DNA of 64,000 bases from Nitrospirota bacterium (GTDB lineage: Bacteria > Nitrospirota > Thermodesulfovibrionia > Thermodesulfovibrionales > SM23-35). The stretch lies in NCBI GenBank assembly GCA_040757475.1, contig JBFLWW010000002.1:23818-87817 (forward strand), read 5' to 3'. The notes under the pieces are model-generated. The model was not told the origin of the DNA. It was given only the letters and a program-made list of their open reading frames with translations, and ran no database searches. Below are positions 7,633-59,862 of this stretch, piece after piece. Both the position numbers and the translations under genes were made by a program. Position 1 is the first letter of the stretch. Each line of letters starts with the position of its first letter.

Positions 7633-7678
7633 GGTCAGGTCTTGTTTCTTGCAAAAAAGCAAAATGCAAGACCTGACC
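7633..7678. terminator. Hairpin (12-bp stem) after the orphan ORF
   Basis: GGTCAGGTCTTG (7633-7644) pairs with CAAGACCTGACC (7667-7678). There is no clear U-tract. Confidence 0.35.
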
Positions 7679-7741
7679 CCTCGTTGCAGTTAACTTTTGG
7701 ATTTTGACATCTTTTATCCCTTATTGCTATTCTTTCATAAA

Positions 7742-8629
7742 ATGAGAATGTATAAGGTGAATTTCAGCCTGAGAGAGCCGAAGGTGATATTCCTGATTAA
7801 TACATGTATGGGGATACTTCTGATTTTTGCAATTCTCTTTTTTGTCAGAGACATTATTTCAATCTCAATAAGCCATGATAGAAAAACTCCGATGCATGCG
7901 GAGAAATTCAGTCCTACAAGGACAAGTGCCGTGTCCCTGCAGGATTATGCACCTATACTTAAAAATAACCCTTTTGGTTTTCCCGGAGGCGAATTGAAAC
8001 CCATTATTGTCTCATCAGGAGAGGCATCAATCTCAAGGACAGATATATCCCTTATAGGAACTGTTTCAGGGCCAGAAAGTCTGAGCTATGCAATCTTTGC
8101 TGATAAGACAGGCTTTCAGGATGTTTTCAGGGTAGGTAATCCTGTTTTTGGTCTCGGAACCCTAAAAAAGGTTGAAAAGGATAGGGTATTTATAAGTAGC
8201 AGTGGCAGGGATATAGAGATTCCAATAGCAGAGATAACAACAATAAGAGAGATTAAAAGACCACCTACAGGTGAGACAGCTTCTGCTGGTTTTGCGCGGA
8301 AGACGGGTGAGGGAGTCTATACAGTTGACCAGAGAAGGGTTCAACAGGCAATAGAAAACCCCAACCAGATTATGACTGATGCCAGGCTCCTACCAAATAT
8401 TGTTGAAGGCAAACAGGAGGGATTTGTATTAAGGGAGGTGAGGCCTAATGGAATATATCAGAGCCTCGGTCTTCAGAATGGTGATGTCCTTTTAAGGATA
8501 AATGAGTATAATATCTCTAATCCTGAAGCTGCACTTCAGGCATTCACAGCACTTAAGGGGATGGACAGGGTTCAACTTGATATTGTAAGAGTCGGGGCAA
8601 AGATGACTATGACATATCAAATAAGGTAG
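7742..8629 (+). CDS. gspC: Type II secretion system protein C (N-terminal TM, HR region, C-terminal PDZ)
   Basis: The TM segment is VIFLINTCMGILLIFAILFFV. The C-terminal PDZ-like block is GFVLREVRPNGIYQSLGLQNGDVLLRINEYNIS. The start is uncertain (TTG 7697 or ATG 7742). Confidence 0.7.
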   Translation: MRMYKVNFSLREPKVIFLINTCMGILLIFAILFFVRDIISISISHDRKTPMHAEKFSPTRTSAVSLQDYAPILKNNPFGFPGGELKPIIVSSGEASISRTDISLIGTVSGPESLSYAIFADKTGFQDVFRVGNPVFGLGTLKKVEKDRVFISSSGRDIEIPIAEITTIREIKRPPTGETASAGFARKTGEGVYTVDQRRVQQAIENPNQIMTDARLLPNIVEGKQEGFVLREVRPNGIYQSLGLQNGDVLLRINEYNISNPEAALQAFTALKGMDRVQLDIVRVGAKMTMTYQIR

Positions 8630-11436: not shown

Positions 11437-13638
11437 ATGACTATGAAAGCGTTTAAAAAGCGTGTTATCTATTATCTGTTATCTGTTATTTTAATTTCAC
11501 TGTTCACTGTTCACTGTTCACTGTTCACTGTTTATGCTGAGACAAAAAAGGCTGATGAGAAGGTTACATTCAATTTCGTGGATGTTGACCTCGCCACTAT
11601 AACAAAATTTATAAGTGATATTACAGGGAAGAATTTTATCTTTGATGAGAGGGTGAAAGGCAAGATAACAATAATAGCCCCTTCTAAATTAAGTGTTGAC
11701 GATGCATACAATCTTTTCACATCCGTGCTTGAGCTTAAAGGCTTCACAGTTGTCCCATCAGGTGTTGACGCATATAAGATTATCCCTGCTATAGAGGCAA
11801 AACAGCGTGGGATACAGCTTGGTGCTGAGAGAGTGCCTGTTAATGAAAGCTACATAGCAAGACTTCTACCTTTAAAACATATATCCTCGGATGATGCCCT
11901 GAGATTTCTCCAACCCCTTATCTCAAAGGATGGTCATATATCCACATTCGGCCCTGGCAACCTTCTCCTTGTTGTTGACTCTGGACTGAATATTGAAAAG
12001 ATTCTTTCAATTATTGAGGCTATAGACCAGCCGTCAGCAAGAGAAGAACCTGAAATTGTCTTTCTCAAACATTCAAGCGCAGATGCCGTTGCAAAGATTC
12101 TCAATGAGGGTTTTGGAAAGGAAAGGACAAGGGCTGTTCCAGGCCAGCCACCACATATTGAGGAAGGCAGGGCAGTGGCTGACCAGAGGCTCAATGCTAT
12201 TGTCCTCTTTGGAGACAAAGGTGTCAGGGAATTCATGAAGGGACTGATAGCCCTGTTAGATGTGCCTTCGCCTGAGGCCCAGGGAAGGATAAATGTCTAT
12301 TTCCTTGAAAATGCTGATGCAACCGAGCTTGCAAAGGTCCTTGAGGGTATGCTGAAGGGTGCACAACCTGCAAGACAGGTCGCCCCTCCTGCACCGGGTG
12401 CTCCGCCAGTCACTCCCTTTGAGGCAGTTGGCGGCATAACCATAACACCTGATAAGGCCACAAATTCCTTTGTGATAGTTGCCTCACCAGCAGACTATCA
12501 GAACCTCTCACAGATTATAAAACAGCTTGATAAAAGGAGAAGACAGGTATTTGTTGAGGCAATGATTGTTGAGGCATCAATTGATAAGCTGAGGGAGTTG
12601 GGTGCAAAATGGAGAGCAACAGGAAGACATGAGGGAGAGCCTATAGTAATAGGCGGTTTCGGAACCATGAACCAGTCAGCACTTCAGTCTGTGATTTATG
12701 GGCTGACAGGTCTTACAGCTGGAGGAATGGGAAATTTCCTTGATATAAAGCTTACCACGCTTGATCCAACTACTGGTAAAGTTACAGAAGGCACTGTCAC
12801 AGTGCCTGGTTTTGCAGCCATCTTTAGCCTCAGTGAGTTTAAGGATGCTGTAAATGTCCTTTCAACCCCCCAGATTCTCACATCTGATAACAAAGAGGCA
12901 GAGATTGTGGTCGGTGAGAATGTTCCATTCATATCAAAAAGGGAAGCTGACCCTGCAAGAACCCTGTCTATGTTCACCACTATTGAAAGAAAGGATGTCG
13001 GAATCACGCTTAAAATAACCCCACAGATAACTGAAGGAGACTATGTCAAGCTTGATATATATCAGGAGATATCAGCGCTGGTATCTCCACCTGCTGGGCT
13101 TGAAGAGGCCATTCTTACAGGCGTGGGACCTACTACAACAAAACGCTCAACAAAGACATCGGTTGTGGTAAAGGACAGGCAGACTGTTGTTATCGGAGGC
13201 CTCATGCAGGAAAGGGATGCGGAGAACCTGACAAAGGTTCCGCTTCTTGGAGATATACCACTTCTTGGATGGCTTTTCAAATATAAGAGTGTCTCAAAGA
13301 AAAAGACAAACCTGCTTGTATTTCTTACACCTCATGTTGTTAAAAAGGCAGAAAATCTTGCGCAGATTACAAGAGATAAAGAGAAGGAGTTTGCAAGGGT
13401 GGAAAAGCAGTATAAAGAAGGAGAGCTTTTAATAAAGTTCAAAGAAGGGGTTTCAGAGGAGAGAGCACTATCAATAATCTCTGAAAAGGGTGCATCAGTT
13501 ATAACATTTATCGAGAACATTAAGGTCTATCATATAAAACTCAGAAAGAGGCAGGATGTAGAAGATGCCCTGAAGGAATTTTCTGAGATGCCAGAGATTC
13601 AATATGCAGAGCCGAATTATGTAATTAAAATAAAGTGA
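11437..13638 (+). CDS. gspD: Type II secretion secretin GspD with an extra C-terminal subtilase-propeptide (I9)-like domain
   Basis: 733 aa with N0-N3 domains and a secretin core (VPLLGDIPLLGWLFKYKS). The C-terminal 72 aa are not typical of secretins. The signal peptide is encoded by a heptamer array. Confidence 0.85.
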   Translation: MTMKAFKKRVIYYLLSVILISLFTVHCSLFTVYAETKKADEKVTFNFVDVDLATITKFISDITGKNFIFDERVKGKITIIAPSKLSVDDAYNLFTSVLELKGFTVVPSGVDAYKIIPAIEAKQRGIQLGAERVPVNESYIARLLPLKHISSDDALRFLQPLISKDGHISTFGPGNLLLVVDSGLNIEKILSIIEAIDQPSAREEPEIVFLKHSSADAVAKILNEGFGKERTRAVPGQPPHIEEGRAVADQRLNAIVLFGDKGVREFMKGLIALLDVPSPEAQGRINVYFLENADATELAKVLEGMLKGAQPARQVAPPAPGAPPVTPFEAVGGITITPDKATNSFVIVASPADYQNLSQIIKQLDKRRRQVFVEAMIVEASIDKLRELGAKWRATGRHEGEPIVIGGFGTMNQSALQSVIYGLTGLTAGGMGNFLDIKLTTLDPTTGKVTEGTVTVPGFAAIFSLSEFKDAVNVLSTPQILTSDNKEAEIVVGENVPFISKREADPARTLSMFTTIERKDVGITLKITPQITEGDYVKLDIYQEISALVSPPAGLEEAILTGVGPTTTKRSTKTSVVVKDRQTVVIGGLMQERDAENLTKVPLLGDIPLLGWLFKYKSVSKKKTNLLVFLTPHVVKKAENLAQITRDKEKEFARVEKQYKEGELLIKFKEGVSEERALSIISEKGASVITFIENIKVYHIKLRKRQDVEDALKEFSEMPEIQYAEPNYVIKIK
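11464..11533 (+). repeat. Heptamer lattice, 10 units (4x GTTATCT-type, 1 transitional unit, 5x ACTGTTC), encoding the gspD signal peptide
   Basis: Read directly from the sequence. It is in register over 70 nt and translates VIYYLLSVILISLFTVHCSLFTV. Confidence 0.9.
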
Positions 13639-15176
13639 AGAATGCAGAAGCCATGAAAACCATCAACAGCATAAAAGACGATGATGTAGAGCCTTCACTT
13701 GTTAAAGAAGTTCCACTCTCTTTTGCAAAAGGCAATCTGATAATGCCTCTTAGAAGGGAAGATGGAGCCCTTCTGGCTGCTGTTGCAGATGAAAAGGGAA
13801 TCCTTGCTTTATTTGAACTGTCTAAACGCTTTGGCCTTAAACCATTACCTCTGAATGCACAATCAGGAGTGGTTATTGATGCTATTAACAGGTTCTATGG
13901 CCAGCTCGGCTCTGCAGAGGAGGTGATGGATAATATAACAGGCGAAGACCTTTCATCTGTTGCCACAGAGTTTGAAAGACCAAAGGACCTTCTTGAGCTT
14001 ACAGAAGAGGCTCCAATAATCAGGCTCTTTAATGCCCTCCTTCAGCAGGCGGTCAAAGAGAGGGCTTCTGATATACATATAGAGCCTTATGAGAAGGAAC
14101 TCGATGTGAGGATTAGGGTAGATGGGATTTTACACAGGGTTTTAAGTCCACCAAAGATAATTCAGGATGCATTGATAAGCAGGGTAAAGATTATGGCAAA
14201 CCTTGATATAGCCGAGAAGAGACTACCTCAGGATGGAAGGATAAGACTTCTTATTGGTGGAAGGGATATAGATGTAAGAGTCTCTATAATCCCAACATCT
14301 TATGGTGAGAGGGCAGTGTTGAGGCTACTTGACAGGAGACAGGGACTTATAGGGCTATGGGAGGTAGGTCTTAACAAGGAGGATGAGAAGCGACTCGAAG
14401 GACTCCTTCAGAGAACAAACGGGATACTGCTTGTTACAGGTCCCACAGGTAGTGGCAAGACAACCACACTCTATGCTGCACTGAACAGGATTCATACAGA
14501 AGAAAAAAATATCATAACTGTTGAAGACCCTGTGGAATACCAGCTTAAAGGTATCGGTCAGATACAGGTTAATCCAAAAATAGGTTTAACCTTTGCGTCA
14601 GGGTTGAGGTCAATCTTAAGGCAGGACCCTGATGTGATAATGGTTGGCGAGATTAGAGACATCGAGACAGCCGAGATAGCAATCCAGGCATCTCTCACAG
14701 GCCATCTCGTCTTGAGCACACTTCATACAAACGACGCCTCATCAGCCATTACAAGGCTTTTAGATATGGGAGTTGAGCCATTTCTTGTGGCATCATCCCT
14801 TGTAGGTGTCCTTGCACAGAGGCTTGTGAGGATTATATGTCCCAATTGTAAAGAATCATACGAACCCTCAGATGCTGAGAAATCATATTTTCTTGACTCG
14901 TCACTTGTCATTCTATACAGAGGCAGGGGCTGTGAGAGATGCAAAGGTAAGGGCTATATTGGAAGGACAGGGATATTTGAACTCCTAATCATAGACAACG
15001 AAATACGCCCTATGATTACAGATAGAGTAGATGCACAGAGTATAAAGAACTTCGCTATATCAAAGGGGGTTAAGAGTCTGAGGATGGACGGGATTAGTAA
15101 AGCCTGTGCTGGCATTACTACATTAGAGGAAGTGCTGAGGGTTACTCAGAAGGATTATGCCAATTTTTTCGTATAG
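13635..15176 (+). CDS. gspE: Type II secretion ATPase GspE
   Basis: Walker A GPTGSGKTT, Asp/His boxes, and a tetracysteine motif CPNC...CERC. Confidence 0.9.
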   Translation: MKNAEAMKTINSIKDDDVEPSLVKEVPLSFAKGNLIMPLRREDGALLAAVADEKGILALFELSKRFGLKPLPLNAQSGVVIDAINRFYGQLGSAEEVMDNITGEDLSSVATEFERPKDLLELTEEAPIIRLFNALLQQAVKERASDIHIEPYEKELDVRIRVDGILHRVLSPPKIIQDALISRVKIMANLDIAEKRLPQDGRIRLLIGGRDIDVRVSIIPTSYGERAVLRLLDRRQGLIGLWEVGLNKEDEKRLEGLLQRTNGILLVTGPTGSGKTTTLYAALNRIHTEEKNIITVEDPVEYQLKGIGQIQVNPKIGLTFASGLRSILRQDPDVIMVGEIRDIETAEIAIQASLTGHLVLSTLHTNDASSAITRLLDMGVEPFLVASSLVGVLAQRLVRIICPNCKESYEPSDAEKSYFLDSSLVILYRGRGCERCKGKGYIGRTGIFELLIIDNEIRPMITDRVDAQSIKNFAISKGVKSLRMDGISKACAGITTLEEVLRVTQKDYANFFV

Positions 15177-16332
15177 AGGTTACAGGATAGATGGCAGTGA
15201 GGCGACAGGCACCCTTGAGGCTGATGGCCTGAATGATGCTGCCTCAAAGGTCAGGAACCTCGGTCTTTTCCCGAAAGAAATCAGAGAATATATTCACAGA
15301 GAAAAGACAGGTTTTTTCCACAAACCTGATACTGCACTTCTTCCTGCAATAACAAGGCAGCTATCGTTGCTTCTTTCCTCAGGGGTACCTCTGATGGAGG
15401 CACTCAGGGCACTTTCTGAAGAGAACAGGGGATTCTGGAAAAGGCGTCTTATTAGTGTAAGAGAACAAGTTGCTAGTGGTACAAGTTTTTCTCGTGCATT
15501 GGAAGAACATAAAAAAATCTTCCCTGAATTCTATATAAATATGGTGGCTGCTGGAGAACATAGCGGGACATTAGATAAGGTCCTTGTGAGGCTTGCCGAC
15601 TTTCTTGAAAAACAGAATGCCATCAGAGCAAAGATAAAGGTATCCATGATGTATCCCATGTTTATGATATGTGTGGGGTTTATTGTGATGTCGTTTCTTT
15701 TTATCTTTGTAATACCAAAAATAGTAAAGATATTTGAAGATACTAAAAGTGCCCTGCCGTTAATAACAATTATTCTTATAAACATAAGCAACTTTTTTCG
15801 TTATTACTGGTGGATACCTCTAATAGCAGTTATTTCAGGAGTTCTTGGTATAAGGAAATTACTGAGAGAACATAGGCTCTTAGTTGATAAAACAATATTG
15901 AGATTGCCAGGTAGCCTTCTACAGGCTTTATATCTTGCCCGATTTTCCCGGAGCCTGAGTTTCCTTTTAGAAGGTGGATTGCCTATGCTTAAGGCCCTTG
16001 AACTTTCAGCAAAATCTACAGGCAACAGAGCACTTGAACTCAAGGTCTTGGCAGCAGGGGAAAAGGTGGCTGAGGGAGGAAGACTTTCTGCATCATTAGA
16101 GGGATTCCCGCCTGTCATGCTCCAGCTCATCTCCGTAGGTGAACGAAGCGGAACCTTGATAGAGGTTTTAAATAAGGCAGCAGACTCTTACGAAGAAGAG
16201 TTCCATAGAAGGGTTCAGAGGGCCCTCTCCTTGCTCGAACCTTCTATGATTTTATTAATGGGTATTGTGGTAGGCTTTATTGTGCTTGCAGTCCTGCTCC
16301 CGATGTTCCAGTTAAACCAGCTGGTGAGGTAA
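15157..16332 (+). CDS. gspF: Type II secretion inner-membrane platform protein GspF
   Basis: 391 aa with duplicated GspF domains. The N-terminus MPIFSYRGYRIDGSEATG is typical. Confidence 0.85.
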   Translation: MPIFSYRGYRIDGSEATGTLEADGLNDAASKVRNLGLFPKEIREYIHREKTGFFHKPDTALLPAITRQLSLLLSSGVPLMEALRALSEENRGFWKRRLISVREQVASGTSFSRALEEHKKIFPEFYINMVAAGEHSGTLDKVLVRLADFLEKQNAIRAKIKVSMMYPMFMICVGFIVMSFLFIFVIPKIVKIFEDTKSALPLITIILINISNFFRYYWWIPLIAVISGVLGIRKLLREHRLLVDKTILRLPGSLLQALYLARFSRSLSFLLEGGLPMLKALELSAKSTGNRALELKVLAAGEKVAEGGRLSASLEGFPPVMLQLISVGERSGTLIEVLNKAADSYEEEFHRRVQRALSLLEPSMILLMGIVVGFIVLAVLLPMFQLNQLVR

Positions 16333-16334: not shown

Positions 16335-16769
16335 ATGAGAAAATATGAGAAAGGCTTTACACTTATCGAAATAATAGTTGTAGTTTTCATACTAAGCCTC
16401 CTCGCTGCTATTGTTGCCCCAAGGATTATAGGCAGGACAGAGGATGCCCGCATTGCAGAAGCGAAGGTACAGATAAGAAATTTTGAGACAGCTATAAAAC
16501 TTTTCAAGATGGACAATGGTTTCTATCCTGACACCCAGCAGGGGCTTGCTGCCCTCATTGAAAAACCAACCATCGGCAGAATCCCGAACAACTATAGAGA
16601 AGGGGGCTATCTCGAACAGAGAAAGATACCTATGGATCCGTGGGGCAATCCGTATATTTATGTCGCTCCTGGCCTCCATGGAGATTTTGATATCCTGAGT
16701 CTGGGTGCTGATGGAAAGGAAGGCGGGGAAGGGAAAGATGCAGACATTAAGAACTGGGAGTTACAGTAA
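16335..16769 (+). CDS. gspG: Major pseudopilin GspG
   Basis: The prepilin leader is MRKYEKG/FTLIEIIVV. It also carries the GspG signature DPWGNPY. Confidence 0.9.
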   Translation: MRKYEKGFTLIEIIVVVFILSLLAAIVAPRIIGRTEDARIAEAKVQIRNFETAIKLFKMDNGFYPDTQQGLAALIEKPTIGRIPNNYREGGYLEQRKIPMDPWGNPYIYVAPGLHGDFDILSLGADGKEGGEGKDADIKNWELQ

Positions 16770-17205
16770 AGCGGGATTCACGCTCCTTGAGCTGATAATT
16801 GTTATATTTATACTCTCACTTGTAATGGCTGTGGTCTTTCCATCTTTTTATGGAATTGTAGATGGAAGGCTTAAATCAGAGTCAGGTAAGATTGCGTCTT
16901 TATTAAGGTATCTGAATGATAGCGCAATCTCCAGAAAAGAAACATTTATACTTAAGATTAACCTTGATAGTAATACCTTCTTATGGGAAGGTCCTGATGG
17001 TAAAAGGTCAGAAAGTTTCAATGGTCTTTTAGATATTTTTACAACCTCAACAGGAAGTGTCTCAAGGGGTGAGGTGATACTTTCTTTCGGTCCCCTCGGC
17101 ATTCAGGAGAATCTCAGAATCCACCTGAGGGATAAAGATAAGGAAATGGCGGTTACGCTTAACCCGATGAGTGGAAGGGTAAAAATAATTCAAAGTTCAA
17201 AATGA
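16738..17205 (+). CDS. gspH: Minor pseudopilin GspH
   Basis: The leader is MQTLRTGSYSKAG/FTLLELIIV. It overlaps the gspG 3' end. Its C-terminal IQSSK* and its stop codon lie inside a repeat element. Confidence 0.6.
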   Translation: MQTLRTGSYSKAGFTLLELIIVIFILSLVMAVVFPSFYGIVDGRLKSESGKIASLLRYLNDSAISRKETFILKINLDSNTFLWEGPDGKRSESFNGLLDIFTTSTGSVSRGEVILSFGPLGIQENLRIHLRDKDKEMAVTLNPMSGRVKIIQSSK

Positions 17206-17265
17206 AAAATTCAAAATTAAGGAATTCCAAAATTTTTAATTTTAAATTTTTAATTTTAAATTCCC
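17189..17265 (+). repeat. 77-nt AT-rich inverted heptamer element (11 units, core TTAAGGAATTCC), copy 1
   Basis: TTCAAAG TTCAAAA TGAAAAA TTCAAAA TTAAGGA ATTCCAA AATTTTT AATTTTA AATTTTT AATTTTA AATTCCC. It spans the gspH stop and gspI start. Confidence 0.9.
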
Positions 17266-17609
17266 GCCCACATCAGGTGAGCGGGTTCGCCCTCCTCGAG
17301 GTTATGATTGCAGTTGGCATTGTTGGGGCCCTCCTTGTTACCCTCATATATACATTGAATTATAATCTTGGCATTGCTGAAAGACACGAGACTATTACTG
17401 TTGCAGCTATACTTGCAAGAGATAAAATTTCCGAGATAGAGAAAATGCCTGTTGATTCCAGAGGAGAATTCCCTGAACCTTATTCTGATTATCAATATGA
17501 GACCACAGTCAAAGAATCCGTATATCCTAACATATCAGAAATATCAGTTGTTGTTAGAAAAGGGAAAGAAGAGGTTAAACTCAGCGAATTAATTCAAAGT
17601 GCAAAATGA
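17202..17609 (+). CDS. gspI: Minor pseudopilin GspI (repeat-encoded long leader)
   Basis: ATGA overlap with the gspH stop. The cleavage motif is QVSG/FALLEVMIAVGIV. The first ~22 codons lie in the 77-nt repeat element. Confidence 0.6.
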   Translation: MKNSKLRNSKIFNFKFLILNSRPHQVSGFALLEVMIAVGIVGALLVTLIYTLNYNLGIAERHETITVAAILARDKISEIEKMPVDSRGEFPEPYSDYQYETTVKESVYPNISEISVVVRKGKEEVKLSELIQSAK

Positions 17610-17669
17610 AAAATGCAAAATTAAGGAATTTCAGAATTTTTAATTTTGAATTTTCAATTTTAAATTTCC
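17593..17669 (+). repeat. 77-nt AT-rich inverted heptamer element, copy 2 (about 88% identical to copy 1)
   Basis: TTCAAAG TGCAAAA TGAAAAA TGCAAAA TTAAGGA ATTTCAG AATTTTT AATTTTG AATTTTC AATTTTA AATTTCC. It spans the gspI stop and gspJ start. Confidence 0.9.
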
Positions 17670-18244
17670 GCCTGCCTAAGGCGGGGGGCTTCACCCTCAT
17701 CGAGTTATTGCTCGCATTTGCAATATTATCCGTAATACTTGCAACACTGTATAGCACGTTTTTCCTTTCGCATAAGGCACTGGATGGGATTGACAGCTCA
17801 TTGTTGAAACTCCAAGAATGTCGTGCAACTCTTGATGTCATGAGAAGGGAAGTAGACTCCATTCATTCCCTTTTAAAGGTTGATGACAGGGACATATATG
17901 GCAGGCAGACATCAAGACTTGTCTTTACCGCCTTTTCGTCTTTAAGACCGGGTCTTTCCATGATATCTTATTTTATTGAAGAAAAAGATGGTAAGTTAAT
18001 ACTCCTTAAAGAAATAAATTCTGCCTATATGTCTGATAATAAGGCTGAAAGTGTAGAGATAATAGAAGATGTTGAGGCTTTTATGGTAGAAGTTAAATAT
18101 AATGATAAATGGGTTAAAACATGGGATAGTTTTATAACCCATAGTATTCCTCAAGAGATCAGGATTACATTAACAACAAAGCTAAAAAATAAGACAGTTT
18201 CATTATTTGAAACTGTCAGGCCAAAAATTGGAAGGAGTATATGA
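17606..18244 (+). CDS. gspJ: Minor pseudopilin GspJ (repeat-encoded long leader)
   Basis: ATGA overlap with the gspI stop. The cleavage motif is KAGG/FTLIELLLAFAIL. The first ~22 codons lie in the 77-nt repeat element. Confidence 0.6.
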   Translation: MKNAKLRNFRIFNFEFSILNFRLPKAGGFTLIELLLAFAILSVILATLYSTFFLSHKALDGIDSSLLKLQECRATLDVMRREVDSIHSLLKVDDRDIYGRQTSRLVFTAFSSLRPGLSMISYFIEEKDGKLILLKEINSAYMSDNKAESVEIIEDVEAFMVEVKYNDKWVKTWDSFITHSIPQEIRITLTTKLKNKTVSLFETVRPKIGRSI

Positions 18245-19128
18245 GAGATAATAGAGGGATGGCCCTCGTATTGGTGCTTATGGTGCTTGTCATTATTACT
18301 GCCATGATTATAGAGTTTTCGTATGGTGTTTATACAGGTACAGGTGCACTTTATAACTGGCAGAGCTCTCAAAGACTCTCACTGATGGCAAAATCTGGAA
18401 TTCAAGTATCTCTCGAGAGTATCTCTGATATGAATGCTTCATATCCCTACACATACCCAGGTGTTATAGAGATGCCTGTTAGCCATACGCCCCTGCAGGA
18501 AGATTCTGATGGAACAATTCATGTAAGGATAGAGGATGAGAATTCAAAATTCAATATCAATTCTATTGTATACCCCAACGGCACATTAAATGAAAATGCA
18601 TTTAATTCTTTTAAGAGGCTTCTCTCATATCTTGCTGTGGATTCTGAGGTTGCCAACAGGGTTGCGGACTGGATAGATAAAGACAGCGAGCCGCGCCTTA
18701 TTTATTCTGAAGACAATGCTAAAAATGCGGCTCTCGATAGCCTTGATGAGCTGCTTTTAATAAATGGGGTAGACAGGCATACCTATGATAAGATCTCACC
18801 CTATCTGACTGTGTATGGCAATGGGCTTATAAATATTAACAGCGCAGAAATTCCTGTTCTTGTATGTCTTTCTGATACTATTACAGAGGAGCTTGCAGAG
18901 AGGATAATTCGCTACAGAGATATTATACCTTTTGAGGATACAAGCAAGATTGTAAAGGTTGCTGGCCTTGAGACTGTGGGACAATCCCTTATTGGACGAA
19001 TAACTGTTAAGGGTACAAGTTTTCGTATTATATCAACTGCGGAAGCAGGGGGTGTAAAAAGGATTGTAGACAGCGTTCTTGAAATATCAGGTGGCACTCC
19101 AACTGTCAAATACTGGAAGGAGATATGA
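18241..19128 (+). CDS. gspK: Minor pseudopilin GspK
   Basis: 295 aa. The N-terminus is RG-MALVLVLMVLVIITA. Position and size fit GspK. Confidence 0.65.
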   Translation: MRDNRGMALVLVLMVLVIITAMIIEFSYGVYTGTGALYNWQSSQRLSLMAKSGIQVSLESISDMNASYPYTYPGVIEMPVSHTPLQEDSDGTIHVRIEDENSKFNINSIVYPNGTLNENAFNSFKRLLSYLAVDSEVANRVADWIDKDSEPRLIYSEDNAKNAALDSLDELLLINGVDRHTYDKISPYLTVYGNGLININSAEIPVLVCLSDTITEELAERIIRYRDIIPFEDTSKIVKVAGLETVGQSLIGRITVKGTSFRIISTAEAGGVKRIVDSVLEISGGTPTVKYWKEI

Positions 19129-20210
19129 TGGGGAAGATAGCCTTTTTTGATATGAAGGGAGAAGAAATTACTCTCTATATGTTTGAAAAGAAGGCAGGCA
19201 ACTATGAATTGAAACTAACAACTACCTTTCCGGTCAGGGGATACAGTCCTATTATTATAATAAAAGATTTGCCTGAAGGTATAGAGGAGTCATATCTGAG
19301 TTTACCGTTAAGTTATCTAAATTTCAGGACTGTAGAACTTCCATTTTCTGACAGAAGAAGGATAAGAGAGGTTCTTCCATTCGAGCTAAATAATTTAATC
19401 CTGAATGGCTCTGGTAGTGTGGTTTTTGATAATATTACATTAGGGAATATTAATGGAAAATATAAGGTCCTTGCTGTATACATCGAGAAAATTATCCTCA
19501 GGGAGATTCTGGGAAGGTTCAAGGCATTCAATATATACCCAAAGGTTATAACATCAATAGAGCTTAAACCGCTTGTTGATAACTTCGATATAGAGCATCT
19601 TCTTAATCCAGTAGAGTTGGATAACAAAAAACGAATAGATATAGCTATAAGTGAGATCAAAGGTCACATTATTAACCTGAGGAGAGATGAATTTTCCTAT
19701 ACAAAAGATACCGAAAAAATAAAGAAGTCACTCAGATTGAGTGCAATACTTGCTGCCTTATTGATATTAGTGTTTGCTTCTGACCTGAGTTTAAGAATTT
19801 TCTCAATAAAGAGAGAAGCATCTAATATTAGAGAAGAGATCAGGAAGACATATTCAAGTATGTTTCCACATGAAAGGTCTACAGAGGCGTATGGCCCTGC
19901 GGCTTTAATATATCAGCTCAAATCACATATTAAAGAATTAAAGACTAAGGAAGAGTCTCTCACAGGTGTTTCTCCACTGCGGCTTTTGCTTGATCTGTCT
20001 CGTGTCAGCAGACCAGATATAGCATTTGCTGAGATAACAATAGATAGGGAGCGGGTAATACTGAGAGGTGAGGCTTCATCTCTAAGTGATGTCCAGCAGA
20101 TAAAGGGCAGGCTCGCAGAGTTCCTCACTGATGTCGATATCTCTGACACAAAATCCTCTTTACAGGGCCGGACAGTGTTTACTATTACAGCGAAGGAGAA
20201 GAGGTCTTGA
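19125..20210 (+). CDS. gspL: GspL-like assembly protein
   Basis: 361 aa with a cytoplasmic N-domain, a central TM (LSAILAALLILVFASDL) and a periplasmic C-domain. It is coupled to its neighbours. Confidence 0.55.
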   Translation: MMGKIAFFDMKGEEITLYMFEKKAGNYELKLTTTFPVRGYSPIIIIKDLPEGIEESYLSLPLSYLNFRTVELPFSDRRRIREVLPFELNNLILNGSGSVVFDNITLGNINGKYKVLAVYIEKIILREILGRFKAFNIYPKVITSIELKPLVDNFDIEHLLNPVELDNKKRIDIAISEIKGHIINLRRDEFSYTKDTEKIKKSLRLSAILAALLILVFASDLSLRIFSIKREASNIREEIRKTYSSMFPHERSTEAYGPAALIYQLKSHIKELKTKEESLTGVSPLRLLLDLSRVSRPDIAFAEITIDRERVILRGEASSLSDVQQIKGRLAEFLTDVDISDTKSSLQGRTVFTITAKEKRS

Positions 20211-20710
20211 GAGTAGGGCGATTGTTTTCACGTAATTCGCTGCTGATATGTGGAATCGGAGTGCTTATTGTGCTCGGCATTTTATTGGTTAATGTCCTTT
20301 TATCTGCAAAAACCGAACTCGCACAACTAAGAGTTCAACAGAAAGAGATGTCTTTGCTCAAAGATGAATTTGCGTCGCTCAAAAACAGGGTGGATTCTCT
20401 AAAAGGCAGAAGGTCTCTTACCAAGGTAGGAGGTATTGTTCAGGCGACTGATGAGGTTTTTGCGACTTCAGGCTTGAAAGATAAGATTAAATCTCTAAAG
20501 CCTGTTGGCAGGAGAGAGATAAAGGATGCCCTGGAGGAAGAGGCCGAAGTTCATATAGAAAAGGTAAACATGAATGAGATGATAAACATCTTTTATAAGA
20601 TTGAAAATGCACCTATGATTCTGTCTATAAAAAAGGCAACAATCAAGACATCATTTGAGAACCCTGAGTTACTGAATATCACAATGACCCTCGCATTCGT
20701 TAAAATCTAA
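20207..20710 (+). CDS. gspM: GspM-like protein
   Basis: 167 aa with a single N-terminal TM. It follows gspL. The assignment rests mainly on position. Confidence 0.45.
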   Translation: MRVGRLFSRNSLLICGIGVLIVLGILLVNVLLSAKTELAQLRVQQKEMSLLKDEFASLKNRVDSLKGRRSLTKVGGIVQATDEVFATSGLKDKIKSLKPVGRREIKDALEEEAEVHIEKVNMNEMINIFYKIENAPMILSIKKATIKTSFENPELLNITMTLAFVKI

Positions 20711-20712
20711 GA

Positions 20713-20768
20713 TTCAAAGTGAAAAATAGAAGATTAAAGATTTTCCTTATTTTTACATTTTCGATTTT
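20713..20768 (+). repeat. Degenerate copy of the AT-rich element at the gspM/gspN junction
   Basis: TTCAAAG TGAAAAA TAGAAGA TTAAAGA TTTTCCT TATTTTT ACATTTT CGATTTT. Confidence 0.7.
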
Positions 20769-21516
20769 GGGTTTTATATTTCTTTTCTGGTTAATAGTAA
20801 TCCCGGAGAGTTTAATTACAGATATGATCGAGAGCTCTATCAAAGGTGAAAATGTTCGGATAGGGATTGAGGGTTTCAAAAAAGGTTTATTCTATAATTT
20901 CAGGATTGGGAAAATTTTATTGAATAGCTCTAACGACACGCTGGTGTCTATTGAAGATATTTCTGGTCGTATTAACCTCCTGTTTTTTTTCATAATGAGA
21001 CTAAACATCTCTTTCCATGGAAATATAGGTAACGGTGTAATTCTGGGTAATATAAATCTGTCCGGGAATAAAAATCACATCAGTCTGAACATCAACTCTG
21101 TGAATATAGACAATGTCCCTCTTCTAAGAGTCATAGGTATCGAGGGGAAGGGTGTCCTGTCAGGAGAGTTCAGGTTAAAAAATAGTCAGGGTGACCTTAA
21201 ATTTTTCATAAGGGATGTACAACTAAAAGATACATCTTTTTCTGGTTTCCCAATTCCATTCAGTTTTTTTAATAGCATAAAAGGTGGTATGGTTATAAAA
21301 GGTGACCTGATTGAAGTTAATTCTATTTCATTTGAAGGTAAAGATATTTACGCGAGGGCTAAGGGAAGTGTACAAGGAAATAATCTGGACATAAAATTAG
21401 AATTGATGCCAGAAGCCTCTTTTACCGGTGAATCATACATTTTTACTCTTCTAAGCAATTACAAGATATCTCCTAAATATTATGTAATCCCTATAAAGAC
21501 GCGTATCAGCATATAA
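20719..21516 (+). CDS. gspN: GspN-like protein
   Basis: 265 aa with an N-terminal anchor, last gene of the cluster. The start codon and anchor lie within a degenerate repeat element. Confidence 0.4.
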   Translation: MKNRRLKIFLIFTFSILGFIFLFWLIVIPESLITDMIESSIKGENVRIGIEGFKKGLFYNFRIGKILLNSSNDTLVSIEDISGRINLLFFFIMRLNISFHGNIGNGVILGNINLSGNKNHISLNINSVNIDNVPLLRVIGIEGKGVLSGEFRLKNSQGDLKFFIRDVQLKDTSFSGFPIPFSFFNSIKGGMVIKGDLIEVNSISFEGKDIYARAKGSVQGNNLDIKLELMPEASFTGESYIFTLLSNYKISPKYYVIPIKTRISI

Positions 21517-25044: not shown

Positions 25045-26705
25045 AACTTAGAGAACTTCTTCACGGTTGTGATTATATTGACTCCTCACTTGTCACTTGT
25101 CACTTGTCACTCGATACGGACATCTCAGGTGTAGCTTATGATTCGAGAAAGGTGAAAGAAGGTTACCTGTTTGTGGCGATAAAAGGTGAGAAGCACGATG
25201 GCCATGATTTCATCGGTGATGCAATTAAGCGAGGAGCAGTGGCAATAGTGCATGAAAAAACAGTAACGAGTTACGAGTTACGAGTTACGAGTAAAGAAAA
25301 AGACTTGTCACTTGTCACTCGTCACTTGTCACTTATTCAGGTCAAAAACAGCAGAAAGGCACTTGCCTGTATCGCAAATAATTTTTACGGGAGGCCCTCT
25401 GAGAGGCTCACAGTTATAGGTATAACCGGTACAAACGGGAAGACAACGACAACATATCTCCTTAAATCTATACTCGAATCGTGGGGAAAAGAAATCGGTC
25501 TTATTGGAACAATACAATACATGATAAAGGACAAAAGTTACTCTGCATTATATACAACACCCGAGGCATTAGAGTTCCATGGACTTTTAAGAGATATGCT
25601 CTTATCAGGGTGCACGCATATCATATCAGAGGTCTCATCACACGCCCTTGCTCAGAGCAGAGTGGATGGGACTGTTTTTAAGACTGTAGCGTTTACAAAT
25701 CTCACAAGGGAACATCTGGACTTCCATAAAACTTTGGAGGATTACTTCAGGGCAAAGGAGAGACTGTTTAGAGAGCTTCTCGATAAGGATGGGACCTCTG
25801 TAATAAATCTCGATGACCTATATGGAAAAAGACTGATCTCTTCACTCAGCAGCGGGGTCCCCAGAAAGTCGCAAGACTTTCTGGGGCGTATATTAACATA
25901 CGGCCTTGAGACAGGAGCAGACATTATGGCGAGGGATATCAATAGTTCATTCAAAGGGTTGAGGTTCAAAATAGCATTCCGTGGCAGGAATTATAATATC
26001 TCATCTGCTCTGATGGGTCTACCAAATGTATACAATATTATGTCTGCAGCTGGGGCATCAATCTCGATAGGAGTTCCATGGGATATAATTCTTGAGGGTA
26101 TAAAAAATTTAGGCACTGTTACAGGCAGATTCGAAAAGGTTAATCTTGATCAGAATTTTCTGTGTATCGTTGATTATGCCCATACAGAGGATGCCCTCGA
26201 GAGGCTGATATATACAGCGAGGGAACTTATAAATAAGCCTTTAGTCAATAGTCATCAGTCATTAGTGAAAGACAGTAACAAGTTACGAGTTACGAGTAAC
26301 AAGTATGAAGATAAGAACTTGTCACTTGTTACTTGTCACTCGTCACCCCGTATTATTACTGTCTTTGGGTGTGGAGGAGATAGAGATCGCAGTAAGAGAC
26401 CGGGGATGGGTACAGTAGCAACAAGGCTTAGCGATTTTGTGATTATCACCTCTGACAATCCGAGGTCTGAAGACCCGAACAAAATAATTAGAGAGATTGA
26501 AGCAGGAGCTATAAGGAGAAACTATATAATCGAACCTGACAGAGCAGAGGCAATCAAAAGAGCTATTATGCTGGCAGGCGAGGGAGATATTGTCCTTGTT
26601 GCAGGCAAGGGACATGAGGATTATCAGGAAATTAAAGGTGTAAGGTATAGATTTAATGACAGGGAAATATTAGAAAAGGCGATCAAACAAAGAATAAAGT
26701 CGTAA
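25041..26705 (+). CDS. murE: UDP-MurNAc-tripeptide synthetase MurE, carrying three in-frame repeat insertions
   Basis: Contains DSRKV, GITGTNGKTTT, DYAHTEDAL and GCGGDRD. The ORF is 554 aa versus roughly 490-500 aa typical. Confidence 0.9.
   Translation: MKLRELLHGCDYIDSSLVTCHLSLDTDISGVAYDSRKVKEGYLFVAIKGEKHDGHDFIGDAIKRGAVAIVHEKTVTSYELRVTSKEKDLSLVTRHLSLIQVKNSRKALACIANNFYGRPSERLTVIGITGTNGKTTTTYLLKSILESWGKEIGLIGTIQYMIKDKSYSALYTTPEALEFHGLLRDMLLSGCTHIISEVSSHALAQSRVDGTVFKTVAFTNLTREHLDFHKTLEDYFRAKERLFRELLDKDGTSVINLDDLYGKRLISSLSSGVPRKSQDFLGRILTYGLETGADIMARDINSSFKGLRFKIAFRGRNYNISSALMGLPNVYNIMSAAGASISIGVPWDIILEGIKNLGTVTGRFEKVNLDQNFLCIVDYAHTEDALERLIYTARELINKPLVNSHQSLVKDSNKLRVTSNKYEDKNLSLVTCHSSPRIITVFGCGGDRDRSKRPGMGTVATRLSDFVIITSDNPRSEDPNKIIREIEAGAIRRNYIIEPDRAEAIKRAIMLAGEGDIVLVAGKGHEDYQEIKGVRYRFNDREILEKAIKQRIKS
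25080..25114 (+). repeat. Heptamer array (GACTCCT, 3x CACTTGT, CACTCGA) in the murE N-terminus
   Basis: Read directly from the sequence. It translates DSSLVTCHLSLD. Confidence 0.9.
25262..25338 (+). repeat. Composite inverted heptamer element (5x AGTTACG-type, spacer unit, 5x CTTGTCA-type) in murE
   Basis: 11 units on one lattice. It translates VTSYELRVTSKEKDLSLVTRHLSL. Confidence 0.9.
26241..26345 (+). repeat. Composite element of 15 heptamers = 35 codons in murE
   Basis: 4x TAGTCA-type, 5x AGT[TA]AC[AG]-type, a spacer, then 4x CTTGT[CT]A-type units. It translates LVNSHQSLVKDSNKLRVTSNKYEDKNLSLVTCHSS. Confidence 0.9.
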
Positions 26706-30182: not shown

Positions 30183-31265
30183 ATGCTATATAGCCTTCTT
30201 TACAGCATGCATGACTTGTTTTCACCCCTGAATGTGTTCAGGTATATCACATTCAGAACGTCGCTCGCTGTGTTTACAGCGCTGATGCTTGCATTGATAT
30301 TAGGTCCATCAATTATAGGCAGGCTCAAACAGTTAAATGTAACACAGCAGATAAGAGACGATGGTCCACAGATACATATGGGCAAAGCAGGCACTCCTAC
30401 AATGGGGGGGATCCTGATTATAATCTCTATCCTTCTATCTATCTTGCTATGGGGTGACCTGAGGAATATGTATATATGGGTTATGATTATTTCCCTCGCA
30501 GGGTTTGGTGGTATTGGTCTACTTGATGACTATTTGAAGATTGTAAAGAAAAACTCGAAAGGTCTGCGTGCATGTTATAAGTTTGGTGCACAGATAGCAC
30601 TTGCACTTTTAATTGGTATCTTTCTTTACATGAACCCTAAGGACCCTTACAGCGATGTTCTCAGCGTACCATTCTTCAAAAAATGGCTTTTTGATCTTGG
30701 GTGGTTTTATATACCGTTCTCGATTATTGTGATTGTGGGCTCATCAAATGCAGTTAATCTGACAGATGGTATTGATGGCCTTGCCATAGGGCTTGTGGGT
30801 ATAGCGGTCATGGCAAATGGGGTACTGGTTTATATATCAGGGCATAAGGGGCTTGCCCAGTACCTGCAGGTTCTCTATCTGCCAGGCACTGGAGAGCTTA
30901 CAGTTTTCTGTGGCGCTATGTTAGGTGCTTCTTTAGGTTTTCTCTGGTATAACTCATATCCTGCAGAGGTATTCATGGGAGATGTTGGTTCACTTGGACT
31001 TGGTGGTTCGCTCGGTGCGCTTGCAGTAATTACAAAGCACGAGATTGTTCTTGCAGTTGTAGGTGGGATATTTGTAATAGAGACCCTTTCTGTTGTCTTT
31101 CAGGTGGCATCATTCAGGCTGACCGGCAAGAGGATATTCAAAATGGCACCTATCCACCACCACTTTGAGTTAAAGGGATGGCCAGAATCAAAAGTTATTG
31201 TAAGGTTCTGGATAGTTGGAATTATACTGGCTCTGTTGAGCTTAGCAACATTAAAGGTGAGGTGA
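30183..31265 (+). CDS. mraY: Phospho-N-acetylmuramoyl-pentapeptide transferase MraY
   Basis: Contains GTPTMGG, NAVNLTDGIDGLA and HHHFE. Confidence 0.9.
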   Translation: MLYSLLYSMHDLFSPLNVFRYITFRTSLAVFTALMLALILGPSIIGRLKQLNVTQQIRDDGPQIHMGKAGTPTMGGILIIISILLSILLWGDLRNMYIWVMIISLAGFGGIGLLDDYLKIVKKNSKGLRACYKFGAQIALALLIGIFLYMNPKDPYSDVLSVPFFKKWLFDLGWFYIPFSIIVIVGSSNAVNLTDGIDGLAIGLVGIAVMANGVLVYISGHKGLAQYLQVLYLPGTGELTVFCGAMLGASLGFLWYNSYPAEVFMGDVGSLGLGGSLGALAVITKHEIVLAVVGGIFVIETLSVVFQVASFRLTGKRIFKMAPIHHHFELKGWPESKVIVRFWIVGIILALLSLATLKVR

Positions 31266-31267
31266 TT

Positions 31268-32281
31268 ATGAGAAAGTCATTAGTCATTAGTCATCAGTCA
31301 TCAGTCATAATAAGGAAAAGATTATTATTTATTGTAGTCTTTTTACTTCTCACTTCTCACTTTTCACTTTCAACTTTGTTTGCTGATGAGATCCATTCCC
31401 GTGCCGCCCTTGTTATGGATGCGTCAACAGGAAAGGTGCTTTATGCAAAAAATCTAAACCTTAAGCTTCCTCCTGCGAGTACAGCAAAGCTGATGACTGC
31501 TATTGTGGCAATTGAAAAGGCAGACCTCAATGATGTTATTACGATAAGCAAAAGAGCAGTCAGTGTTGCTCCAACAAAGGCTGGATTTAAGGCAGGAGAA
31601 AAGGTGACAATTGAGACGCTTCTTTATGCAGCGCTTCTCAGGTCTGCAAATGATGCTGCTACAGCCCTTGCAGAAGCTGTAGCTGGTTCAGAAGCTAAGT
31701 TTGTCCAGCTTATGAATAGAAAGGCGATTGCTATTGGAGCAAAGGATACAAAATTCATAAACCCACATGGACTTCCTGGCCCTGACCAGTATATTACAGC
31801 CCATGACCTTTCAAAGATAATGAGACATGCGCTCAAATATCCCAGACTAAAAGAGATCATCGGGACTCGTGTTGCAGAGGTCTCAATAAAAAGGGGGAAG
31901 TCCATATCTCTTGAAAACACAAACAGACTTTTGTGGGTTGACGAATACCTTGTGGGTGGTAAGACAGGATATACCCGTAAAGCAAGGCATTGTTTTGCAT
32001 GTGCCTGTAAACGCAAAAAGAATACAGTTGTAGTTGCCCTCCTCGGCAGTCCAAGCAGGGAAAACCTATGGAAAGAAGCAGAATTACTGATTGATAAGGG
32101 ATTCCAGATAATGGCAAATAAAGAAGAACCTGTCATCTATTTTACAAAGGCAGATTATGATGCACTTAATGTGAAGAAGGCATCCTATAAGAAAAGTTCA
32201 AAGTTCAAAAGTTCAAAGTTAAAGGCTTCATCACTTAAGTATAGGGTTGCAAAGAAAGGTGAGGATGGGAATAAAGGATAA
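31268..32281 (+). CDS. dacA: D-alanyl-D-alanine carboxypeptidase (S11, PBP5/6-like) with repeat-encoded signal peptide and tail
   Basis: Contains SxxK (ASTAK), SxN (SAND) and KTG (GKTGYT). ATG 31268 follows AAGGTGAGGTGA. Confidence 0.8.
   Translation: MRKSLVISHQSSVIIRKRLLFIVVFLLLTSHFSLSTLFADEIHSRAALVMDASTGKVLYAKNLNLKLPPASTAKLMTAIVAIEKADLNDVITISKRAVSVAPTKAGFKAGEKVTIETLLYAALLRSANDAATALAEAVAGSEAKFVQLMNRKAIAIGAKDTKFINPHGLPGPDQYITAHDLSKIMRHALKYPRLKEIIGTRVAEVSIKRGKSISLENTNRLLWVDEYLVGGKTGYTRKARHCFACACKRKKNTVVVALLGSPSRENLWKEAELLIDKGFQIMANKEEPVIYFTKADYDALNVKKASYKKSSKFKSSKLKASSLKYRVAKKGEDGNKG
31274..31308 (+). repeat. Heptamer array (3x AGTCATT, 2x AGTCATC register) at the dacA N-terminus
   Basis: aagtcat tagtcat tagtcat cagtcat cagtcat, which translates KSLVISHQSSVI. 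Confidence 0.9.
31340..31374 (+). repeat. Heptamer array (TTCTCAC/TTTTCAC) forming the dacA signal-peptide h-region
   Basis: tttttac ttctcac ttctcac ttttcac tttcaac, which translates FLLLTSHFSLST. Confidence 0.9.
32193..32221 (+). repeat. AAAGTTC array in the dacA C-terminal tail
   Basis: aaagttc aaagttc aaaagttc aaagtta, which translates SSKFKSSKLK. Confidence 0.85.
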
Positions 32282-34864: not shown

Positions 34865-34888
34865 ATTTTTAATTTTAAATTTTAAATT
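34808..34888 (+). repeat. AT-rich inverted heptamer element (core TTACGGAATTCC) at the ftsW 3' end
   Basis: About 12 units in register. The ftsW stop (34862-64) lies inside the element. The left arm translates RLKIQNAKFKNQNYGIPLF*. Confidence 0.9.
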
Positions 34889-34894
34889 GAAAGT

Positions 34895-56622: not shown

Positions 56623-56709
56623 TGCAAAATTCAAAAAGCAAAATTCAAAAATCCAATTCAAGATTTAAAATTTCCTTAATTTTGCATTTTTCATTTTTAA
56701 TTTAAAATT
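56623..56709. repeat. AT-rich inverted heptamer element in the glyA-nrdR spacer
   Basis: Positions 56673-56696 are the exact reverse complement of 17604-17627 (24 nt). Confidence 0.9.
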
Positions 56710-56713
56710 TACT

Positions 56714-59690: not shown

Positions 59691-59753
59691 ATAATTTAAA
59701 AATTTTGGTTTTTTCGTATAAAAGTTGAAAAGTATATTTATTATAAAAGCAGT

Positions 59754-59831: not shown

Positions 59832-59862
59832 AGTTAACAAACTTTAAAAGAGGTATTTTCAG

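Follow-up and report, generated by a model that had tools for sequence, protein, structure and literature searches.

A 77-nt heptamer-hairpin element at the gspM/gspN junction of a Nitrospirota type II secretion operon probably overprinted a pre-existing membrane anchor

We analyzed a 64,000-nucleotide (nt) stretch of a Nitrospirota genome (GenBank assembly GCA_040757475.1, contig JBFLWW010000002.1, positions 23,818 to 87,817), hereafter the window. It has a GC content of 41% and carries on its + strand a type II secretion system (T2SS) operon followed by mraZ, rsmH, ftsL, and ftsI. At the nucleotide level, the junction between gspM and gspN in this operon is a full-length, colinear copy of a family of 77-nt elements composed of heptamer repeats. 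The N-terminal membrane anchor of GspN is ancestral and predates the element. We consider it probable that the element copy overprinted this pre-existing anchor, replacing about 53 nt of the ancestral 5' end of the gene. A preliminary description of the region had proposed that the repeat was exapted into a functional anchor. The features of the junction are as follows.

20207-20710, + strand: gspM, with stop codon TAA at 20708-20710 (..FVKI*)
20705-20781, + strand: diverged copy of the 77-nt TTCAAAA-type element at the gspM/gspN junction, found by nhmmer profile, with left arm at about 20705-20740, centre TTAAAGATTTTCCTTA, and right arm at about 20745-20781
20703-20774, + strand: predicted mRNA hairpin formed by both arms, enclosing the gspM stop and the gspN GUG
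20719-21516, + strand: gspN, GTG start at 20719, 265 amino acids, Leptospira-type GspN
20719-20739, + strand: predicted basic cytoplasmic tail of GspN (MKNRRLK, including the GTG start), which holds a clade-specific five-codon extension
20740-20802, + strand: transmembrane (TM) helix of GspN predicted by hydropathy (IFLIFTFSILGFIFLFWLIVI, codons 8-28), of which the element copy covers codons 8-21

A diverged element copy spans the gspM/gspN junction

Elements of the TTCAAAA type are laid out as (TTCAAAA/TGAAAAA)n, a centre TTAAGGAATTCC, and then (TTTTAAA)n. An nhmmer search with a profile of seven bona fide copies scored 25.3 bits at the junction (E = 1.3e-6). The alignment pairs 20705-20781 with positions 5-80 of the 83-position profile, contains one indel of 1 nt, and places the gspN GTG on the ATG of the element. 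The sequence quoted in the preliminary description is present at 20713-20768, and the likeness to the element reaches slightly further. A minus-strand profile match also exists at the junction (19.8 bits). Outside the heptamer repeats, the best match in 222 kb on both strands reached 5.6 bits, and no other gene start scored higher. With a profile restricted to the four non-coding copies, of which two come from distant genomes, the junction scored 21.8 bits (E = 1.7e-5). Identity to the family consensus was 74-78%, with 74% for the window junction, as compared to 77-97% for the bona fide copies, the most diverged of which lie at 77-78%. The junction region failed a strict 80% array detector. 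The proposed colinearity with the 77-nt element was thus borne out by profile score, non-coding profile, consensus identity, and the null models described below.

For comparison with relatives, a protein search recovered 23 GspN homologues and a genome scan recovered 41 loci (referred to by L numbers) from Nitrospirota/Thermodesulfovibrionia and a few Desulfobacterota. The aligned set contained 36 GspN proteins, comprising five members of the window's clade (window, L001, L002, L006, and L012) and 31 outgroups. A full-length colinear match to the profile was present at the junction across the clade, scoring 25.3 bits in the window, 27.0 in L006, 21.6 in L002, 20.8 in L012, and 17.6 in L001. 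None of the 31 outgroup junctions had a full-length match, and the sole hit above 6 bits was a partial one in L048 (10.1 bits, E = 0.37). The five clade members share 85-100% GspN identity and show no indel at gspM/gspN, which is consistent with the junction copy being fixed in the clade while neighboring copies come and go between strains.

A Lys/Asn-rich tail followed by a Phe/Ile/Leu-rich helix might, at 41% GC, mimic an A-rich arm followed by a T-rich arm. Two properties of the profile match lend some weight to such a coincidence: the nhmmer bias term was large (19 bits), and the full-model score exceeded the sum of the arm scores, so that the A-rich-then-T-rich layout contributes. Since separate profiles of the two arms were weak, we used coding-aware null models in place of nhmmer E-values alone (3000 trials each). 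Preserving amino-acid composition while shuffling residue order, with genome codon usage, gave maxima of only 7.8-13.7 bits. Preserving the peptide while resampling synonymous codons gave a mean of 9.1 and a maximum of 22.8 bits, and none of the 3000 trials reached 25.3 bits. The outgroup junctions, despite similar architecture and GC content, yielded no comparable match, nor did any other gene start in the 222 kb. Moreover, the periodicity is that of heptamers rather than codons: lag-7 autocorrelation at the junction was 0.57 and lag-14 autocorrelation 0.44 (top 2% of all 77-nt segments), with no lag-3 peak. Bona fide copies had lag-7 values of 0.63-0.70, whereas outgroup junctions had values of 0.20-0.27. 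We therefore regard compositional coincidence as very improbable.

The GspN anchor and start codon are ancestral

GspN matched NCBIfam TIGR04411 at 93.6 bits (cutoff 50) over residues 6-259. Neither GspN nor GspM matched a Pfam family at E ≤ 0.01, so T2SSN (PF01203, proteobacterial GspN) was unmatched. The nearest public relative is a Nitrospirota metagenome-assembled genome (GCA_040753955.1) with 96% GspN identity. From hydropathy, GspN is predicted to have a single N-terminal membrane anchor with a basic tail. The best 19-residue segment comprises residues 8-26, with a summed apparent insertion free energy (dGapp) of -4.7 and a Kyte-Doolittle (KD) value of 2.72, and the tail MKNRRLK carries a charge of +4. 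The peptide is therefore TM-competent by hydropathy, in agreement with the preliminary description, which had called it a plausible TM helix.

This architecture is not particular to the window. A Trp (W24 in the window) is invariant in all 36 GspN proteins, and each of the 31 outgroup proteins has an N-terminal hydrophobic anchor before it. Exactly 18 residues precede the Trp in 27 of the 31 outgroups (M-K-K/R plus 15 hydrophobic residues), as compared to 23 in the window clade. Summed dGapp of the outgroup anchors ranged from -1.7 to -4.3. As outgroup anchors are present and similarly hydrophobic, the anchor of GspN is ancestral. The window protein therefore has the anchor architecture of all TIGR04411 homologues; it differs in an N-terminus that is five residues longer, in having residues 1-21 encoded by element-like DNA, and in matching the family model only from residue 6. 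Comparison with relatives, which the preliminary description had suggested, thus gave a divided answer: their N-termini differ in sequence and are five residues shorter, but the same architecture was already there.

The start codon has a similar history. Outgroup gspN genes start with GTG in 17 of 31 cases, typically in the context RAAGTGAAAA, and 20 of the 31 have a start that overlaps the TGA stop codon of an upstream open reading frame (ORF) of gspM length. Outgroup GspM proteins end in ..VKPK* or ..LKTK*, overlapping the gspN start. The GTG start is conserved in all five clade members, and the clade keeps AAGTGAAA, with the GTG overlapping the gspM TGA stop in the four sister genomes. In sister strains, gspM reads on through the left arm of the element (..FVKIQDSK*) and overlaps the gspN start as GTGA. 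Hence, the gspN GTG with its AAGTGAAA context is ancestral, and the element did not supply the start codon. The GTG had been said to occupy the position of the gspI and gspJ ATGs; it does align to the ATG of the element, but its context was inherited rather than donated.

These observations refute the proposal that GspN acquired both its anchor and its start codon from the repeat. In its favor, the GTG falls in the register of the element's ATG, and the hydropathy of the GspN N-terminus is unlike that of the element-encoded leaders. Yet every outgroup GspN already has an anchor and a GTG or ATG start overlapping the gspM stop, and the outgroup anchors themselves score about 0 bits against the element profile. 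Of the explanations considered here, de novo exaptation is the least probable.

The nearest outgroup, L008 (537-616), departs from the usual 4-nt overlap of the two genes: a spacer of 120 nt with an A/T palindrome, AGAGATTTATTTTTTAAAAAATTCTCT, lies between its gspM and gspN.

Replacement of the ancestral 5' end or a shorter insertion

Relative to the outgroups, the clade has a net gain of 24 nt, with 9 nt upstream of the start (three GspM codons) and 15 nt downstream (five GspN codons). For a 77-nt copy to leave a net gain of only 24 nt, about 53 nt of ancestral coding sequence at the 5' end would have had to be replaced. Alternatively, about 24 nt of heptamer units resembling the left arm were added around the ancestral AAGTGAAA, lengthening the tails of GspM and GspN. 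The TM segment would then be ancestral, and its likeness to the right arm would stem from T-rich hydrophobic codons and from pairing with the new A-rich left arm. The gain of exactly 24 nt, split around a retained ancestral start, is what such a partial insertion would produce. The extension in L006 also holds a perfect tandem AAAGATT AAAGATT, the distance from a conserved Lys to the Trp is unchanged in a MAFFT alignment, and the codons TTC CTT ATT and TTT ATA .. TTC TGG match codons of L017 and L018.

The two readings differ in what they predict for the right arm. Resampling synonymous codons in codons 9-28 alone lowered the profile score (p = 0.005 for the window, 0.004 for L006, and 0.03 for L002), as did resampling codons 2-8 alone (p = 0.003, 0.001, and 0.002, respectively). 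With residue order shuffled within codons 9-28, none of the 3000 trials for the window or for L006 reached the observed score. The right arm alone had a lag-7 identity of 0.58, a value reached by 0 of 330 T-rich segments, and its excess statistic was significant in the window (p = 0.03). The profile alignment extends to position 80-81 of 83, and the gspH copy in L006 has the same 13 nt, TTCCTTATTTTTA, in its loop and at the beginning of its right arm. Each of the right-arm results argues against a partial insertion.

Several findings nevertheless weigh against replacement by a full-length copy. Separate left-arm and right-arm profiles reached only 5-12 bits (E = 0.03-3), with the right arm at about 5 bits, and right-arm periodicity was weak in relatives (p = 0.13-0.22) and convincing in the window only. 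The left arm and centre are therefore strongly element-like, and the TM-coding right arm moderately so. The window's TTC CTT ATT resembles ATC CTT ATT in L017 and TTT CTT ATC in L018, and codons shared with such distant outgroups could be ancestral. Identity between clade and outgroups over the 16 residues before the Trp was 0.14, the lowest of any taxon, against 0.23 for outgroup pairs of equal overall divergence; this difference favors replacement but is not decisive, because the N-terminal region changes rapidly in every lineage. In its other known insertions, the element took the place of only about 10 nt of target. With the clade only 24 nt longer than outgroups, there was no discrete insertion of about 77 nt relative to an empty site at gspM/gspN. 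Likewise, we found no empty or intermediate allele in the protein search, the genome contigs, or the metagenome contigs. GspN identity in the protein search dropped from 85% (P0003) to 50% (P0005) with nothing between, and of the 73 stretches that matched the conserved pattern TGGYTNATAGTNATYCCNGAR in metagenome contigs, a single one encoded GspN, on a contig already in our sample. On balance, partial insertion is a credible but rather unlikely account. Under replacement and short insertion alike, the anchor function existed beforehand; at most, its coding sequence was taken over and then made hydrophobic again.

Proposed course of the takeover

The analysis shows that the junction belongs to the element family at the nucleotide level, that its state in the clade is derived, and that anchor and start are ancestral. 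We infer the mechanism of replacement, the direction of codon changes, and any role of the hairpin to have been as follows. A 77-nt TTCAAAA-type copy would have become fixed at gspM/gspN in the ancestor of the clade, after its split from relatives with ≤ 50% GspN identity. The internal (A/G)TGAAAAAT heptamer of the copy would have come to lie in register with the existing stop/start AAGTGAAA, which may reflect microhomology or selection for a retained start codon. The copy would have taken the place of about 53 nt at the ancestral 5' end instead of being a plain addition of 77 nt. Its left arm would now encode the last GspM residues in sister strains and the GspN tail MKNRRLK, which is five residues longer than the ancestral tail. 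Its right arm would encode about the first 14 residues, or roughly two-thirds, of the TM helix.

Under selection for the existing anchor, the right arm's polar codons with a central A (Asn, Arg, Glu, and Lys) would then have become hydrophobic ones with a central T, while helix length up to the invariant Trp and the Pro-Glu motif was retained. Element-encoded pseudopilin leaders have dGapp values of +12 to +22, far from TM-competent, in contrast to -4.7 for the GspN peptide. The polar-to-hydrophobic changes listed in the preliminary description are real; compared with the gspJ copy, they are AAT>ATT, AGA>CTT, and AAT>ACA. Its protein alignment of GspN with the GspJ leader is roughly right for the first 14 codons, beyond which there is a 1-nt register shift; accordingly, the shared FSIL is due to repeat periodicity rather than to aligned codons. 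Only the part of the helix under the element is unusually Phe- or Ser-rich in the clade (6 Phe among 14 residues in the window and 3 Ser in L002), which fits an origin from a T block. Codons 22-28, together with P29 and E30, are conserved with outgroups, and the element alignment stops at 20781. As a secondary and weaker component, the hairpin may have been kept and strengthened in the window lineage, where it may couple GspN translation to GspM termination.

A predicted hairpin over the gspN start

The segment 20703-20783 folds with a minimum free energy of -19.6 kcal/mol (z = -3.6, with 0 of 200 shuffles as good), and the predicted stem contains both the start codon of gspN (GUG) and the gspM stop. 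Bona fide copies fold at -6.7 to -15 kcal/mol, making the junction copy of the window the strongest. Calling this copy degenerate, as was done previously, is therefore misleading.

The window lineage has acquired six transitions (20707 T>C, 20708 C>T, 20729 A>G, 20756 T>C, 20763 A>G, and 20769 A>G). Every one of them affects a paired position, and the stem is strengthened by five. Two are synonymous changes to rare codons (TCA>TCG and TTA>TTG), and two together gave rise to the earlier stop of gspM. When mutations of the same spectrum were placed at random, -19.6 kcal/mol was reached in 1.4% of trials (p = 0.014). This pattern is a hint that RNA structure has been under selection, perhaps in connection with translational coupling. 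Relatives speak against such selection beyond the window lineage: the L006 hairpin folds at -9.0 kcal/mol (z = -0.2), and z is above 0 in both L001 and L002. With a weak hairpin in L006 and none in L001 or L002, a conserved RNA function is unsupported. We rejected a clade-conserved hairpin, given that the L001 and L002 sequences fold no better than shuffles. A functional role for the predicted hairpin is conceivable, though we hold it with less than even confidence.

The 77-nt element family

The window contains 32 tandem heptamer arrays (0.5 per kb), many of which are paired with their own reverse complement and thereby form hairpins. Heptamer units include TTCAAAA/TGAAAAA, GTCACTT, AGTCATT, AGTTACG, and others. 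Copies of the element elsewhere in the window are as follows.

17186-17266, + strand: element copy at the gspH/gspI junction, 63.3 bits, providing the gspI ATG and a long prepilin leader
17590-17670, + strand: element copy at the gspI/gspJ junction, 66.9 bits, providing the gspJ ATG and leader
34813-34889, + strand: element copy, 55.9 bits, ending 5 nt before the start codon at 34895
56627-56711, + strand: non-coding element copy, 42.5 bits, ending 2 nt before the start codon at 56714
61356-61484: composite element copy, overlapping the start at 61490

The left arm of the copy at 34813-34889 overlaps the 3' end of an upstream ORF (33659-34864). No Shine-Dalgarno sequence lies between element and start codon for the copies at 34813-34889, 56627-56711, and 61356-61484. 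In every pseudopilin copy, the element's own ATGAAAAAT is the start codon and a long leader precedes the G|F cleavage motif. In-frame copies, with translation judged from ORF continuity, occur in gspI and gspJ of the window, in gspH, gspI, gspJ, and gspK of L006, and in gspN. All of the minor pseudopilin genes H, I, J, and K of L006 start within a heptamer element.

Strain comparisons establish the 77-nt element as a real, discrete unit, as it is gained or lost by clean indels between strains that are 96.6% identical over most of the operon. Relative to the window, L006 has a clean 77-nt insertion at gspG/H (L006 5895-5971; empty in the window at 16765) with GTAAA on both flanks, and an insertion of about 72 nt at gspJ/K (L006 7442-7522; empty site at 18245-18254 in the window). 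The gspI/gspJ copy is present in the whole clade but not in L009. Three states exist at the gspI start: empty in L002 (MKNRG|FTLLEV, 1560-1600), a TTCAAAA-type element in the window (17184-17275), and an AGTAACG/ACTCGTCAC hairpin in L006 (6380-6475). The region is thus an apparent insertion hotspot. The gspI and gspJ copies of the window are 91% identical over 79 nt, and their similarity continues past the element (82% over 134 nt), which suggests gene conversion.

The family also extends beyond the clade. TTCAAAA-type elements lie at gspH/gspI in outgroups L016 (6466-6544), L020 (613-686), L034 (6224-6304), L017 (6241-6322), and L026 (5880-5947), where they encode the GspI leader, even though the GspN proteins of these hosts are only 33-47% identical to that of the window. 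The copies in L016, L020, L034, and L017 scored 25-49 bits against the element profile, and the right arm of the L016 copy is identical to the window's at 34 of 34 nt. The recurrence of this element at gspH/gspI of distant genomes implies that it either spread horizontally with a preference for the site or is under strong constraint at the nucleotide level. The operon-wide and clade-wide behavior of the element family is more surprising than the gspN copy.

We also entertained a broader model, to which we assign little confidence. The heptamer-hairpin elements of Thermodesulfovibrionia might be start-codon-seeking modules that home to A-rich, ATGAAAAA-like starts typical of envelope proteins and bring an in-frame start with them. 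They would thereby repeatedly rewrite topogenic N-termini, including the GspH/I/J/K leaders, the GspD signal core, and the anchor of GspN. Among them, the copy in gspN would be the one case that became fixed and hydrophobic and was kept as an mRNA hairpin gating gspM-gspN translational coupling.

The signal peptide of GspD presents a related observation. Codons ~9-34 of gspD (11461-11539) encode its hydrophobic core, ..VIYYLLSVILISLFTVHCSLFTVYA|ETKK, from two tandem arrays with the heptamer units TTATCTG and TTCACTG. In L006, 27 nt of these arrays are missing and the signal peptide is shorter, MMRDFKKLVTCHLLFILLVTASYA|ETKK.

Comparison with known repeats

No Rfam family covers the element, and we found nothing specific in the literature on heptamer repeats in Nitrospirae or Thermodesulfovibrio. 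Functionally, the closest analogue is the family of Rickettsia palindromic elements (RPEs), which are in-frame palindromic repeats translated with their host protein (Ogata et al. 2000, summarized in a review of MITEs, or miniature inverted-repeat transposable elements, PMC10969869). Like RPEs, the element is a dispersed palindromic repeat with in-frame copies, here in pseudopilin leaders and the GspN N-terminus. Unlike the 77-nt element, RPEs are about 150 bp long, lack 7-nt tandem units, and are not concentrated on start codons. Membership in the RPE family is unlikely given this size and architecture, the comparison being one of descriptions rather than sequences. We know of no RPE reported to replace a topogenic TM anchor.

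A second parallel comes from marine Beggiatoaceae, Cyanobacteria, and Bacteroidetes, which have direct repeats of the heptamer TAACTGA (MacGregor 2015, PMC4679880). These repeats lie a few nt upstream of start codons, usually without a Shine-Dalgarno sequence, differ between strains by 7-nt steps, occasionally overlap ORF ends, and have been proposed to act in translation (PMC4679880). The phylum Nitrospirota is not mentioned in that study (PMC4679880). Similarly, element copies in the window end 2-5 nt before the starts at 34895 and 56714. However, the units here are TTCAAAA/TGAAAAA and others, the arrays are paired with their reverse complement into a hairpin, and the element forms a discrete unit of 77 nt whose centre, GGAATTCC, is conserved. 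Furthermore, TAACTGA repeats make stop codons in the forward orientation, whereas the element is open in the frame that is used.

Cyanobacterial short tandemly repeated repetitive (STRR) heptamers are tandem, consist of variable units, often lie between cistrons in operons, and can form hairpins. They differ from the element in phylum and in being mainly intergenic. We know of no STRR equivalent of a fixed, translated copy that forms a membrane anchor.

Repeats of the REP/REPIN-RAYT and MITE types resemble the element in being short, dispersed, hairpin-forming, and polymorphic in presence or absence. Unlike in MITEs and REPINs, we identified no terminal inverted repeats distinct from the arms. 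With regard to target-site duplication, the one clean insertion (gspG/H in L006) is flanked by GTAAA, while about 10 nt were replaced at other sites. A tblastn search with the Y1_Tnp protein of L002 found no Y1 transposase in the 64-kb window or at the other loci. In L002-L005, the region immediately downstream of gspN holds a Y1_Tnp (PF01797) gene (L002 6548-7396, - strand), which is flanked by GGGTCAGGTCT-type repeats. An inverted repeat with that core, GGTCAGGTCT...AGACCTGACC, is present without a Y1 gene at 7633-7678 of the window, upstream of gspC. On present evidence, we rejected this Y1 transposase of L002-L005 as the mobilizer of the element, there being no match in the 64-kb window and a different flanking repeat.

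What is new relative to these known repeats is the combination of other heptamer units, a discrete 77-nt hairpin with a conserved centre, another phylum, and a copy fixed over a signal-anchor. If the overprinting occurred as proposed, a hairpin repeat was not merely tolerated in a gene but overwrote a signal-anchor whose function was apparently preserved. This would extend the notion of selfish DNA in coding genes from surface loops, as in RPEs, to membrane-targeting sequences. To our knowledge, start-codon heptamer repeats have so far been described in Beggiatoaceae, Cyanobacteria, and Bacteroidetes, and hairpin-form heptamer repeats at starts in Nitrospirota widen this range of phyla. Strain-level gain, loss, and swapping of elements in pseudopilin leaders amount to a natural experiment on how much variation T2SS N-termini tolerate. 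There is also reason for caution in annotating these genomes, as start codons, leader lengths, and apparently novel N-termini may be repeat-derived.

Dense heptamer repeats occur outside Nitrospirota too. The locus of L047 (Desulfobacterium sp. N47) contains 13 AAGGTTC-type heptamer arrays in 20.8 kb (0.63 per kb).

Other features of the locus

The remaining genes of the T2SS operon in the window are as follows.

7697-8629, + strand: gspC
11437-13638, + strand: gspD
13635-15176, + strand: gspE
15157-16332, + strand: gspF
16335-16769, + strand: gspG
16705-17205, + strand: gspH
17202-17609, + strand: gspI
17606-18244, + strand: gspJ
18241-19128, + strand: gspK
19125-20210, + strand: gspL

Heptamer hairpins with units GTCACTT/AGTTACG/AGTCATT/TTCAAAG also lie in ORFs of the division and cell wall (dcw) cluster (25078-25338, 26236-26349, 31261-31379, and 32573-33128). 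Two pieces of this cluster, 25292-25333 (42 nt) and 26283-26334 (52 nt), are not in L006. An inverted repeat of another kind is found at 59753-59832, where 29-nt arms, TCTGGATTCCTGCTTCCGCAGGAATGACA and TGTCATTCCCGTGAAAACGGGAATCCAGA, are 83% complementary.

Across 10838-31277 of the window, identity to L006 was 96.6% in gspD-gspG, 94% in gspH-gspJ, 90% in gspK-ftsL, and 75-80% in ftsI-murE-murF. This mosaic of identities suggests recombination between lineages.

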